From positions 64,001 through 128,000 of the IMG/VR virus record IMGVR_UViG_3300031566_000001: a stretch of DNA of 64,000 nucleotides; one strand, given 5' to 3'. A model generated the notes under the pieces. The model did no database searches. It was not told where the DNA came from and saw only the letters and a list, made by a program, of their open reading frames with translations. The DNA comes from a virus. The position numbers were made by a program, and so were the translations under genes. Positions 1-64,000 of the stretch are shown here, in pieces. Position 1 is the first letter of the stretch; every line of letters starts with the position of its first letter.

Positions 1-1305
1 CCTTATGATGTTGATATAGAGAGGTCGGCCCTCGGCAGTCTGCTGATTGACCCCGCGCTCATGGCTGAGGCTGAGGCCGCTTTGCGTCCCGAGGATTTTT
101 ACCGGGACGCCCACGGCATGATCTATGGAGCTATGCTGGAGCTGTGGCGTTCTGGGTCCGCTTTGGATTACACGCTGCTATGCGGCGCATTGGAAGAGCA
201 GGGAGCCTTAGAGGCCGTGGGCGGGGCGGCGTATGTGGTCTTGCTCATAGAAGGCACTCCTACCAGTGCCCATTTCAGTTCTTATGCCCGCGAGGTTTTG
301 GCCCTAGCCAACCGGCGGCGGCTGATGTCCGCAGGCATTGAGCTACAGAACATGGCCCGAGAGGGCGGTTGCGGTGTCCCGGAGCTTGTGGAGCAGGCCC
401 AGGGCTTGCTCAGTGCGGTGTCTGCGCGGGCTGGGGCACATGGGGCAGCGGTACCCTTTGAGAGTGCCTTAGAAGCCTACTGGGGAGACCTCCGGAGTGA
501 ATTATCTGGCTCTGTGGCGCGGGTGCCCTTCGGGTTCCGGGACCTGGATGCCCTGATAGGTGGATTGAAGGCTGGAGACCTGTGTTACATTGGGGCCAGC
601 CCAAGTATGGGTAAAACGACTTTGTGCCTACAGGCAGCTCTAAATCTAGCCCTATTGGGCGTGGGGCCGACGGTGGTGTTCTCTGTGGAGAGCACGGAGG
701 CGGAGCTGGCGGGGCGTATTCTTGGCTACGTTACCGGGGTCACCTCTGATGCCATACGCAAGGGGCACGTAGTTGGGGACACGCTACCCTGGCTGGGGTT
801 GGTGGCCTCGGAGCTGCAGATACCCATTCTATTGAGGGAAGACTACGATCTGTCACCCGCAGGCATTGACGCGGCGCTTATGAGGGTATCCCCCAAGGCG
901 CGGCTAGTGGTGGTGGATCATGTGCAGCGCATGGAGGGGGGACGCAGGTTCAAGGACCGCCGGGAGGAGGTGACCTACATCTCGCGGCGCCTGAAATCCC
1001 TGGCTCAGAAGCACGAGGTCCCGGTGATTGCGGTATGTACCTTGAGTAGGGCCGTGGAGAGCCGCAAGCCCCCGAGACCTATGCTGGCAGACCTCAAAGA
1101 GACCGGAGACCTGGAGTACGATGCGGACGTGGCGATCCTGCTCTACTGGGCAGGGCGTTACGATCCGGAAAGCCCGATGCAGTTTGTGACGGAGGCCATT
1201 GTAGCCAAACATAGGGATGGGCCGTGCGGCGTGGCATACCTGCGACGTGGGGGCCAGGGGCAGTTGAGCGACTTGGTGCATAGGAACGATTCAGTGACGC
1301 TTTAG
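1..1305 (+). CDS. dnaB: Replicative DnaB-like helicase (5' end lies outside the window)
   Basis: Frame is open from base 1 (PYDVDIERSALGSLLID). Has Walker A GASPSMGKT, VVVDHVQ, LSRAVESR...P.LADLKETGDLEYDADV and IVAKHRDGP, all DnaB motifs. Confidence 0.95.
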   Translation, partial: PYDVDIERSALGSLLIDPALMAEAEAALRPEDFYRDAHGMIYGAMLELWRSGSALDYTLLCGALEEQGALEAVGGAAYVVLLIEGTPTSAHFSSYAREVLALANRRRLMSAGIELQNMAREGGCGVPELVEQAQGLLSAVSARAGAHGAAVPFESALEAYWGDLRSELSGSVARVPFGFRDLDALIGGLKAGDLCYIGASPSMGKTTLCLQAALNLALLGVGPTVVFSVESTEAELAGRILGYVTGVTSDAIRKGHVVGDTLPWLGLVASELQIPILLREDYDLSPAGIDAALMRVSPKARLVVVDHVQRMEGGRRFKDRREEVTYISRRLKSLAQKHEVPVIAVCTLSRAVESRKPPRPMLADLKETGDLEYDADVAILLYWAGRYDPESPMQFVTEAIVAKHRDGPCGVAYLRRGGQGQLSDLVHRNDSVTL

Positions 1306-61059: not shown

Positions 61060-61927
61060 TGAGTTCCGCCCGGCCAGCCAGGGTTACACTATGCCGCCGC
61101 ACTGCCCGCCGGAGGGGTACGGCGTGGAGCAGGACTTTGACGCTTGGTTACGGACGCAAGGGGAGCTTTTGACTGATTCCGCGGAGGCCGACTGGCTGTA
61201 CCTCCCGGTGTTCTGGAACCGGCTCTTTATTGCCACCTGGAAGTGGGCGCAGGATGAGGCCGCCATAGCCCGCTGCGCCGATTGGCTGGCGGCTCTCAGG
61301 GATAGTTTGGGCGGCTTTGAGAGGGTGTTCACCGTCTGTGAATGGGACCTGACCACGGAGCGGCAGGAGCTGGGCACGGACGGGCTGACTGTGTTCACGG
61401 CGGGGCGTCGGGATCGCGCAGGCCTTGATATACCGTTGCTCTGTGCCCCACATGGCGTCCCGCCGGTTTCATACGGCAAGCAATACCTGGCGTCATTTGT
61501 GGGCAACATTGGGACGTCAGGCTGGCGTCAGGGTATGTTGGAGGCCCTGGAGGGCTACGGCGGGGTCCTCATCGAGCACGCACAGAAGGGGCCAGCCTAT
61601 TTCTGTGATGTGATGACCAAGAGCTACGTGGCCCTGGCCCCCAGGGGTCACCGGGGGCAGAGCTTCCGGTTCTACGAGGCCATGGACATGGGTGTGGCCC
61701 CGGTCCTGATCGGTGATATGGATACCCGGCCCTTTAAGAATTGGGTCAATTGGGACTCATGCTCTTACTACGTTCCTGACGCCTCGGAACTTCCCGGCTT
61801 TATTGACAACCTGGACCTGGAGGACGCGTTACGCAAGGGCGCGGAGGCGGCACGGGTATACCATGAGTGTCTGCGGTTCGGGCGGTGGTGCATGTTTGTG
61901 GTGCCTGAGCTGCTGAGCGTGCCGTAA
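61034..61927 (+). CDS. Exostosin/GT47 family glycosyltransferase
   Basis: EADWLYLPV and LAPRG...SFRFYEAM..G..PVLI. Confidence 0.85.
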   Translation: MIYPIPVPDEFRPASQGYTMPPHCPPEGYGVEQDFDAWLRTQGELLTDSAEADWLYLPVFWNRLFIATWKWAQDEAAIARCADWLAALRDSLGGFERVFTVCEWDLTTERQELGTDGLTVFTAGRRDRAGLDIPLLCAPHGVPPVSYGKQYLASFVGNIGTSGWRQGMLEALEGYGGVLIEHAQKGPAYFCDVMTKSYVALAPRGHRGQSFRFYEAMDMGVAPVLIGDMDTRPFKNWVNWDSCSYYVPDASELPGFIDNLDLEDALRKGAEAARVYHECLRFGRWCMFVVPELLSVP

Positions 61928-61932
61928 CTCCT

Positions 61933-61999
61933 GCCACCTTGCCAGGGGTGGCGCGTTTCCTCCTTTTGGGGGCGGGTGGGGCCGGGCCTGCCCGCCCCC
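61933..61999 (+). terminator. Tandem hairpins ending the glycan operon
   Basis: GCCACCTT/GGGGTGGC and GGGGGCGGGTGGG/CCTGCCCGCCCCC. Confidence 0.55.
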
Positions 62000-62201
62000 T
62001 CCTATAAGGATTTCGGCCCGGTTTTCCCTCTTGGTTGGTATGTAAATGGCGCTTTTCCTGTTTATCCGCGACCCTGCCCCCAAACGTCACCAGAGACACC
62101 CAGGTCACCCAGGGCGGTGTTGGGGTGTGAATAGGTGGCTTGATATCCCCAAATGCTTAGAGCGGCTTGTGGTGAATCATGTTAGAATACTAAACTGGTA
62201 C

Positions 62202-62230
62202 TTGACAAAATATAAACGATGTGTTATAAT
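62202..62230 (+). promoter_or_regulatory. Consensus sigma70/sigmaA promoter (probable early promoter)
   Basis: TTGACA-N17-TATAAT with extended TG and AT-rich upstream sequence. Confidence 0.9.
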
Positions 62231-62287
62231 ATAGGTAAGATGAGGAACCAGAGAGCAGAGTAACAGGATACCACAGAGGAGGAGACG

Positions 62288-62521
62288 ATGGCAGAGAGAA
62301 CGGATTACCCAAGGAACCTAGCTGAGATTGCAATACAGGGCGCTATTGCCCAGCTTGGTCAGGCAGATAGCCTCTTGCAGAGGTATCAGGCTGAGTACGA
62401 CCTTCTTCACCACGAATTGGGTGATGATGGCGGCACGGAAGCCGCGCCAGCGCGCCATGCGGTGGAACAGGCCCTCAATCGTCTGGAATATGCCTTGCAG
62501 GAGACTAAGCAACTCTCATAG
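62288..62521 (+). CDS. Hypothetical early protein
   Basis: SD GGAGG; first ORF after the promoter. Confidence 0.7.
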   Translation: MAERTDYPRNLAEIAIQGAIAQLGQADSLLQRYQAEYDLLHHELGDDGGTEAAPARHAVEQALNRLEYALQETKQLS

Positions 62522-62591
62522 CCGAAACTGGGGTGGAGGCCCCGGTCACCCGCGATGCCGCCGTGCGGGTCCGATGAGGCGATGGGCGGCG
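62521..62591 (+). ncRNA. Type II hammerhead ribozyme with pseudoknot (core CCGAUGA)
   Basis: GCC-GAAA-CTGGGG/CCCCGG-TC-ACCCGC/GCGGGT-CCGATGA-GGC; loop I GCCGCC pairs with the 3' tail GGCGGC. Confidence 0.8.
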
Positions 62592-62605
62592 AGAGGAGGC
62601 AACAC

Positions 62606-63268
62606 ATGAAAATCCTGGCAACTGATGAGCAGAGTCTTGCACGCTGGCAGCGCCTACGCCCTACACCCAAGCAGATGCTCCGGATGGGCACCAATAAGAA
62701 GACATTTCACTGCGTGCGCTTTGGGCAGCTGGAGGCCTGGGGCAACGGGTTCTTCCTGCTGGTGGGGAACTCGCCGGACGTGCCTATGGAGGATATGACC
62801 CAGCGCATGCAGCGGTTCTCGGACTGGTCTGACATGAAGGACCGGCTGCTGACGCCGGGGGCTTGCCCTGTGGAGCCGCTGCTGTACCTGGAGGCTGACC
62901 GCTACAGCGTGCAGGAGCGCCGCTTGCTGGTGATGGAGATGCGGTCGCCCACGGACAGCGATGTGATCATGGAGCACCTTACCGTCAATGCAACCATGGC
63001 GCTCTTCATAGAACGTGAGTGCAGGGCGCGGTTCCCCGAGGACTGGATATTGGGCTGGCGGGGCAACCTGTCGGCGGAGGCCAGGATTCACGGGTGCGCC
63101 AAGGTACATCCCAAGCCATTGACGTATTGCGTAAGGGGTCCGGGAGCTGGCTATACCGCTGCTGGCGTGCTGATGCCCAGGACGTGGGGGAGTCAGTTGG
63201 TGAGCAAGGATGGTAGTGTGGCGCTCCAGTATGATGTGACCCGCAGGGTTTGTTATCGAGACGCTTGA
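62606..63268 (+). CDS. Hypothetical protein
   Basis: SD AGGAGG right after the ribozyme. Confidence 0.7.
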   Translation: MKILATDEQSLARWQRLRPTPKQMLRMGTNKKTFHCVRFGQLEAWGNGFFLLVGNSPDVPMEDMTQRMQRFSDWSDMKDRLLTPGACPVEPLLYLEADRYSVQERRLLVMEMRSPTDSDVIMEHLTVNATMALFIERECRARFPEDWILGWRGNLSAEARIHGCAKVHPKPLTYCVRGPGAGYTAAGVLMPRTWGSQLVSKDGSVALQYDVTRRVCYRDA

Positions 63269-63284
63269 TGAAAGGGGATAGAAG

Positions 63285-63527
63285 ATGACTGGCGCTGAGG
63301 TGATTGTATACGGGTTTGCTGCTGTTGGGTTCATAATAGTACTCTGCGTAGCACTAGGGGCTACAGAGGTAGTCGCCGAAGGTATGGTTGAGGATCGCAG
63401 GGAACAAGCTGAAATAGATACTCGGAAGGTGATTCAGGAACTTGAGATAGCCCTGCGCCACGCACGTCAGCCAGAGCACATTCTACTGCCCGCTATGATG
63501 GAGGTGAACGATGTCGCACATAGTTGA
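63285..63527 (+). CDS. Hypothetical membrane protein
   Basis: N-terminal TM helix. Confidence 0.6.
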   Translation: MTGAEVIVYGFAAVGFIIVLCVALGATEVVAEGMVEDRREQAEIDTRKVIQELEIALRHARQPEHILLPAMMEVNDVAHS

Positions 63528-63771
63528 TCCGCGCAATGTGAGGCCGGGGGACCTGAAGCCTGGCGATGTAATGATAAGAACGGTGGCGCTTCATGTGTTG
63601 CCGGACTACACGGGAGGCCGGTTGATGTACCCGATGTACCTGTGCCCGTGGCCGGATTCATCCCTTGTAGATGGTGTGCCCCAGGGCGCACGCATGGAGG
63701 GCAAGCCTGAGACCATGCAAGAGATATTCCCGGTGGTGGGCAATGCTGGGGCCAAGCCGGACCCGATGTGA
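63511..63771 (+). CDS. Hypothetical protein
   Basis: SD GGAGGTG. Confidence 0.6.
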   Translation: MSHIVDPRNVRPGDLKPGDVMIRTVALHVLPDYTGGRLMYPMYLCPWPDSSLVDGVPQGARMEGKPETMQEIFPVVGNAGAKPDPM

Positions 63772-63772
63772 T

Positions 63773-63817
63773 GTTTTGCTGGCAAAGGAAAGTATGGGCT
63801 GCGCTTTTGCGCAAAAG
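63773..63817. promoter_or_regulatory. Bipartite element, copy 8 (inverted order)
   Basis: GTTTTGCTGGCAAAGG (63773-63788), 15 bp, CTTTTGCGCAAAAG (63804-63817), abutting the SD. Confidence 0.75.
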
Positions 63818-63827
63818 GGAGGGAGAG

Positions 63828-64000
63828 ATGGATATACTCAGTGCTTTCGTGGAGCGTGATGTGTATCGGTTGTGGCTTGAGAAGACCGAGAAGGAGCGCA
63901 ACACGGCCAAGCTCCAGGGGCTAACAGAGTGCCAGTGCTGCGGCTTCTGCTGTGCCCGGCGGACATGTGTGCCCCTGCCGGATGAGTTGGAGTCCATTGC
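63828..64000 (+). CDS. YkgJ-family cysteine cluster protein (runs off the window)
   Basis: MDILSAF...ECQCCGFCC. Confidence 0.65.
   Translation, partial: MDILSAFVERDVYRLWLEKTEKERNTAKLQGLTECQCCGFCCARRTCVPLPDELESI

Follow-up and report, generated by a model that had tools for sequence, protein, structure and literature searches.

An intergenic element of about 70 bases, located between two genes of an uncultured phage of about 143 kb, is identified by comparison with its relatives as a type II hammerhead ribozyme by descent. Its core differs from the hammerhead consensus at one letter, a C in place of the conserved U at position 4 (U4C). With moderate confidence, we take the element to descend from a type II hammerhead stabilised by a pseudoknot, to serve a small family of phage genes as their 5' leader, and to be probably weakened yet still cutting. 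The window in this study is the whole stretch of DNA that was analysed, 64,000 nucleotides corresponding to bases 64,001-128,000 of the 143,142-bp virus record, and positions are given in window numbering unless a contig is named.

Anatomy of the element and its operon

The features of the element and of the operon around it are listed below. RF02276 is the Rfam family Hammerhead_II and R1 is the covariance model built from this element family.

62202-62230, + strand: sigma-70-type promoter TTGACA-N17-TATAAT with extended TG; consensus score 12/12
62288-62521, + strand: gene 1 (P0001), 77 aa, no family; its TAG stop (62519-62521) overlaps the start of the hammerhead
62520-62590, + strand: hammerhead-type element including the pseudoknot tail; RF02276 27.5 bits, R1 98.5 bits, descriptor match
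62521-62523, + strand: stem II 5' strand GCC (C11.1 = 62523); pairs with 62578-62580, 3/3 pairs kept in 6/6 homologs
62524-62527, + strand: core GAAA (G12 A13 A14 A15.1); intact in the window copy, GAUAA in the second copy, CAAA in L004
62527-62546, + strand: stem III hairpin, strands 62527-62534 and 62539-62546; A15.1-U16.1 plus 6 to 7 pairs, including one U.G
62547, + strand: C17, predicted cleavage 62547/62548; position of the NUH site in the Rfam alignment
62548-62570, + strand: stem I of 6 pairs (ACCCGC 62548-62553 with GCGGGU 62565-62570) and 11-nt loop I, with GCCGCC in the loop at 62557-62562
62571-62577, + strand: core CCGAUGA (C3 C4 G5 A6 U7 G8 A9); C62572 in place of the conserved U4
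62578-62580, + strand: stem II 3' strand GGC (G10.1 = 62578); the pair G62578-C62523 is invariant in six homologs
62585-62590, + strand: 3' tail GGCGGC, pseudoknot partner of loop I; 6/6 Watson-Crick pairs (all G-C) with 62557-62562, invariant in six homologs
62594-62598, + strand: Shine-Dalgarno GGAGG of the downstream gene; 3 nt past the end of the element and 7 nt before the ATG at 62606
62606-63268, + strand: downstream gene P0002, 220 aa, without a Pfam match; accompanied by the element
G000:C1:53611-53694 (= L084:1501-1584), outside the window: second copy (copy A); R1 77 bits, RF02276 28.2 bits

When positions 62000-64000 were read again, the stems, GAAA, GUC, core, loop I and tail were all found where the first-pass annotation had placed them. 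[quoted passage not shown] A62527 pairs with U62546 (A15.1-U16.1) and the GUC triplet occupies 62545-62547. In the core strand, five of the six specified letters of C3 U4 G5 A6 N7 G8 A9 match, and C4 is the sole core deviation. A linker of four bases separates stem II from the GGCGGC tail. For the loop I/tail pseudoknot, Perreault et al. (2011) ask for 4 bp or more, and six G-C pairs are found here.

The annotation had also placed the site after the first gene of a consensus-promoter transcript, and this arrangement is indeed present: the 12/12 promoter is followed by gene 1 and then by the element, which starts at the gene 1 stop, as had been claimed, and ends 3 nt before the next Shine-Dalgarno. 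The description of this transcript as early comes from the type of promoter only. Perfect TTGACA-N17-TATAAT sites occur only twice in the 143-kb genome, at 126,202 (62202-62230 of the window) and at G000:C1:52377-52405. Both carry the extended TG, and each heads an operon with one hammerhead copy. Relatives retain the promoter block together with about 45 bases ahead of its -35 box, and those bases include a second TGTTAnAAT-like box.

An AUG in loop I opens a 237-aa open reading frame (62555-63268) that is in frame with P0002, which starts at 62606. This AUG has no Shine-Dalgarno, so the 237-aa frame is a likely trap for gene callers.

Match to the hammerhead model and predicted folding

The first-pass annotation had named Rfam Hammerhead_II as the family that a search should return, and this was borne out in part. 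In a permissive Rfam scan, positions 62520-62587 aligned end to end with Hammerhead_II at 27.5 bits, with an E value of 0.001 in a 301-nt search with all families and of 1.1e-4 when only this family was run on the 143-kb genome. Scanned with default settings, the window gave no Rfam match, because 27.5 bits lies under the gathering score of 37. That score was not reached by the window copy (27.5), the second copy (28.2) or the related elements L008 (35.1) and L030 (34.9). Most of the shortfall, that of the canonical relatives included, comes from the pseudoknot, whose sequence and linker are unlike those of the seed: the RF02276 consensus pseudoknot is approximately UGGC/GCCA with a 1-nt linker, whereas the element has GCCGCC/GGCGGC with a 4-nt linker. 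The Rfam threshold thus passes over even canonical members whose pseudoknot sequence departs from the seed.

The element was also searched for with our own type II descriptor. Its criteria were GAAA; stem III with five or more pairs and an A-U closing pair; any base but G at position 17; stem I with five or more pairs; CUGANGA, one mismatch being tolerated; and G10.1-C11.1 as the closing pair of stem II. Exactly one site was found on both strands of the window, and that site was the element. No site was found in 100 dinucleotide shuffles. The match in the window exceeds chance.

Minimum free energy did not distinguish the element stretch from shuffled sequences (z-score -0.72), and an unremarkable value for its composition is expected because the fold is pseudoknotted and lies in GC-rich DNA. 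A nested fold in which the hammerhead pairs were enforced had an energy of -30.4 kcal/mol, and the nested minimum was -35.3 kcal/mol. The loop I/tail duplex has an energy of about -11.7 kcal/mol. When this is added to the enforced fold, the hammerhead becomes competitive with the nested minimum.

Under nested-only folding, 62556-62562 and 62585-62591 form a 7-bp helix that replaces stem I in all six homologs. In these models the helix is a possible competing conformer if stem I and the pseudoknot do not coexist. A match to sul1 RNA on the minus strand was dropped at 13.9 bits (E 3.4).

Homologs, the second copy and descent

Relatives of P0002 in metagenomes numbered five, with 53-66% identity. 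Homologs of the element were taken from two sources: contigs that carry relatives of the neighbouring proteins (L008 and L004) and a metagenome scan for the loop I/tail pattern (L030 and L012). In L008 the element (positions 1-84) lies just upstream of a P0002 homolog and has a canonical core (CUGAGGA, GAAA and GUC). Its stem III and stem III loop differ from those of the window copy with pairing kept, and the free position N7 is changed. L030 also has the canonical core CUGAGGA. The A1.1-U2.1 pair of the window is G-C in both L008 and L030. The differences between L008 and the window (the 1.1-2.1 switch, stem III and N7) are the kinds of change that a hammerhead allows.

Two other homologs have altered cores. 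The L012 copy (251-334, minus strand; 27.2 bits) has the core CUGAUGU (A9U) and one bulge in stem III. The copy at L004:4719-4787 is degenerate, with G12C (CAAA), CAGAUGC (U4A and A9C), GUU for GUC and a C.A mismatch in stem I. Its stem III, loop I and pseudoknot tail are intact, it lies behind the stop codon of the gene that comes first after the same promoter, and the identical sequence is found in L005 and L014. In addition, contig L094 (722-738) has a gene 1 homolog with 71% amino acid identity, followed one base past its TGA by AGCCGAAACCGGGGGC, which is the first 16 bases of the element at the end of the contig.

In the alignment of six sequences, 97.6% of cells pair, whereas sliding the partners lowers this to 25-45%. 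Double-sided changes are seen at two pairs among the six homologs: 1.1-2.1 (A-U to G-C) and one stem III pair. Two further stem III pairs show G-C to G-U changes, and the stem III loops differ in every homolog. The covariation score was reached by 8 of 500 shuffles, which is modest support from only six sequences. The 11-nt loop I and the 6-nt tail are identical in all six homologs. The pseudoknot is present throughout and never varies, so it provides no covariation evidence. The first-pass annotation had called the element a pseudoknotted type II hammerhead with U4C, and the canonical-core homologs together with the compensatory stem changes in related phages support this assignment: they show that the element is a hammerhead by descent and that C4 is the derived state.

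The same comparisons bear on the reading that the element is not an RNA element at all, which would make it a chance look-alike, an N-terminal coding extension of the downstream gene, or a terminator. The score under the Rfam gathering threshold is consistent with this reading, as is the loop I AUG, which the window, the second copy and L008 all have in the reading frame of the downstream gene. However, the same AUG is out of frame in L004 and L012 and is without a Shine-Dalgarno, whereas a strong Shine-Dalgarno and ATG are present at 62594-62608, and the coding extension was rejected on these grounds. The terminator was rejected as well, since no terminator-like site is found in 61800-64000. 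Homologs with a perfect hammerhead core and compensatory pairs, and a descriptor with no match in 100 shuffles, argue against chance. The comparative data effectively refute the non-RNA reading, and we regard it as very improbable.

The second copy has the core CCGAUGA with the same C4, GAUAA in place of GAAA, and a GCAA-capped stem III with a different loop. It follows the TAG of a 70-aa gene and lies directly upstream of a P0002 paralog (L084:1599-2252). The two copies are 73 kb apart, they are the only two in the genome, and each precedes a paralog of one gene family. These paralogs have 69% DNA identity and 67% protein identity, and similar small genes lie after each of them. Between the two loci, DNA identity is 38% for the upstream genes, which is the random level and indicates unrelated genes, 85% for the element and 69% for the downstream paralogs. 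The stop codon, where the hammerhead has its 5' edge, is the exact point at which the loci become homologous. Thus the alignments link the element with the downstream gene in the duplication. The second copy and this linkage go beyond the earlier annotation.

The longest identical run between the two loci is 41 nt (62540-62580) and covers stem I, loop I and the C4 core, while the longest identical run in their coding DNA is 21 nt. The shared C4 and the 41-nt perfect block show that the C4 form is being maintained, either by selection or by gene conversion. The gene upstream of the second copy is 94% identical in amino acids to the gene upstream of the L012 element, and the genes downstream of these two elements are unrelated. 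By these comparisons, the element lies at mosaic joints between genes.

The element is absent from the loci of several relatives (L003, L006, L090 and L093), and it is thus dispensable. No hammerhead was found after the homologs of the second-copy upstream gene in L090, L091 and L093 (L092 ends too soon). L002 was outside the comparison, as this contig ends before the element. The metagenome pattern scan gave 39 matches, 34 of them by chance. The five true matches represent three distinct elements (L012, L030 and L014), and two of the five are contigs that were already known (L014 = L005 and L046 = L008). A scan of genome contigs with the pattern gave 35 matches, all of which were chance matches in GC-rich coding DNA.

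With blastn at a distant setting, 62100-63300 as the query gave no match in a phage GenBank collection. The IMG/VR scans were empty for the P0002 protein, the protein alignment A2, the loop/tail pattern and a pattern free of loop and core. The P0002-family profile retrieved only its own cluster from 1.8 billion representatives, so that this search yielded no distant relatives. A proposed relatedness of the L012 downstream gene and the L030 upstream gene, guessed from their first residues, was dropped when BLASTP gave no alignment.

On the minus strand of L030 (730-760), GCCGAAACCGGGC occurs after the stop of another small gene and is followed directly by a Shine-Dalgarno. The alignment of this stretch is ambiguous and it was left uncounted; deletion within a further hammerhead may have produced it.

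Catalytic activity and competing readings

In the reading favored here, the consensus host-type promoter would place the element within a polycistronic RNA. The three-way junction would fold, with the 6-bp pseudoknot between loop I and the 3' tail holding stems I and II together. Self-cleavage would then follow after C62547, at a lower rate than in a canonical hammerhead owing to the C at position 4 of the U-turn. The upstream product would be a gene 1 RNA whose 3' end is the stem III hairpin, bearing a 2',3'-cyclic phosphate, and the downstream mRNA would begin with a 5'-OH and then the stem I/pseudoknot structure just ahead of the Shine-Dalgarno. Such a cut would uncouple the stability and translation of the downstream mRNA from the upstream RNA. 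The first-pass annotation had further suggested that the core variant perhaps tunes the rate of cutting, which is a reasonable guess.

Several observations point to activity. First, all defining elements but U4 are in place and the pseudoknot, which is needed for fast cleavage in type II hammerheads (Perreault et al., PMC3088659), is perfect. Secondly, a natural viroid hammerhead with U4C is described, by way of PMC3088659, as having considerably lowered activity in vitro while still supporting infectivity (Ambros and Flores 1998, cited in PMC3088659). As described in that citing paper, the viroid hammerhead has the same core substitution but relies on loop-loop contacts in a replicating RNA, whereas the element has a phage type II pseudoknot in an mRNA. 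Third, U13a, which the second copy carries, is a natural variant that likely causes minimal structural change (Perreault et al., PMC3088659). Other observations point the other way: the Rfam score is sub-threshold, core damage is tolerated in the family with the periphery kept, and the element is missing at related loci. In L004 the helices and pseudoknot are kept with a destroyed core, so conservation of the fold is no proof of catalysis.

Alternatively, the element may be a catalytically dead or nearly dead relic from a phage group whose ribozyme core is decaying, in which stem I, loop I and the pseudoknot are kept as a portable structured 5' leader or as a joint for cassette recombination. 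We consider this a serious alternative that is nevertheless probably incorrect. The core varies in four ways in six copies (U4C twice, U13a, A9U, and G12C with U4A and A9C), and loop I and the tail never vary. For the four copies that were found without the loop/tail pattern, a hypergeometric calculation made by hand (5 events in 13 core positions versus 0 in 17 loop I/tail positions) gave p of approximately 0.009. Three of those five events are, however, in the single sequence L004, and the loop/tail invariance of L012 and L030 exists by construction, because the search pattern required both parts. A 6-bp pseudoknot of only G-C pairs, needed for fast cleavage (Perreault et al.), would also be expected to be invariant over short distances if cleavage were selected.

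The persistence of the L004 fold without a usable core fits a kept scaffold, and so do the mosaic joints: the second copy shares the element and downstream gene with the window, where the upstream genes are unrelated, and it shares the element and upstream gene (94% amino acid identity) with L012, where the downstream gene is not shared. Deep mutational scanning of a type III hammerhead showed low activity for each single mutant of the CUGA turn (PMC9901934), and U-turn mutants in general are poor cleavers. On the other hand, two relatives have a perfect core, which suggests recent selection for catalysis in this lineage, and the window copy is a single core letter away, at a position where the U4C viroid, as cited above, offers a natural working precedent.

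A related suggestion is that this lineage inverts the usual conservation of hammerheads, the scaffold having been taken over for a role without fast cutting. This we hold only tentatively and think unlikely; the pattern is suggestive but comes from six sequences, two of which were ascertained through the invariant part. If the inversion were true, the element could serve early-gene cassettes as a structured leader that moves with them and as a joint for their recombination, or it could act as a processing site gated by ions, pH or translation.

Cleavage might also be conditional. Here C4 would make cutting dependent on Mn2+ over Mg2+, on low pH, or on ribosome traffic at the overlapping stop, and the separation of gene 1 from the genes after it would be regulated. 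In the low-pH version, a protonated C would mimic the N3-H donor of U4. The phage Bcep176 hammerhead offers a parallel, as its A6C variant of the U-turn shifts preference from Mg2+ to Mn2+ (PMC7151607). It resembles the element in being phage intergenic, in having a single CUGA-turn change and in being slow in Mg2+ (PMC3088659; PMC7151607), and it indicates that single CUGA-turn variants persist in phages. It differs in having the change at A6 rather than U4, and only for A6C has a preference for Mn2+ been shown. Both copies in the genome keep C4, and the upstream stop codon overlaps or abuts stem II in all complete copies, so that a terminating ribosome would be expected to unfold the 5' part of the element. 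The sequence indicates no sensor domain, however, and we find conditional cleavage improbable.

The copies make up a natural allelic series on one scaffold, ranging from canonical (L008 and L030) through U4C (window), U4C with U13a (second copy) and A9U (L012) to the dead core of L004. Stem I, loop I and the pseudoknot are common to all of them (L004 with a stem I mismatch). The series could reveal to what extent the strong pseudoknot rescues defects of the U-turn or of A9, and it bears on whether phages keep slow or non-cutting hammerheads on purpose.

Comparison with described hammerheads

The element is ordinary in kind, as U4C, U13a and phage hammerheads at gene borders have all been described already. 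By layout and by descent it belongs with the hammerheads of the pseudoknotted type II class (RF02276; Perreault et al. 2011, PMC3088659), with which it shares its capped stems I and III, its open stem II of 3 bp, GAAA, A15.1-U16.1, GUC, G10.1-C11.1, a loop I/tail pseudoknot of at least 4 bp, and its location between the genes of a phage polycistronic unit. It differs from RF02276 in that U4 is conserved there and is C here. The U13a variant (GAUAA) of Perreault et al. (2011) is the exact insertion found in the second copy, where it is combined with U4C. [quoted passage not shown] Among these, the triple hammerheads around ardA in Agrobacterium tumefaciens (PMC3088659) also lie at gene borders of a polycistronic phage RNA and also occur in more than one copy. 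Unlike that arrangement, the present genome has two copies 73 kb apart, each before a paralog of one family in a consensus-promoter operon.
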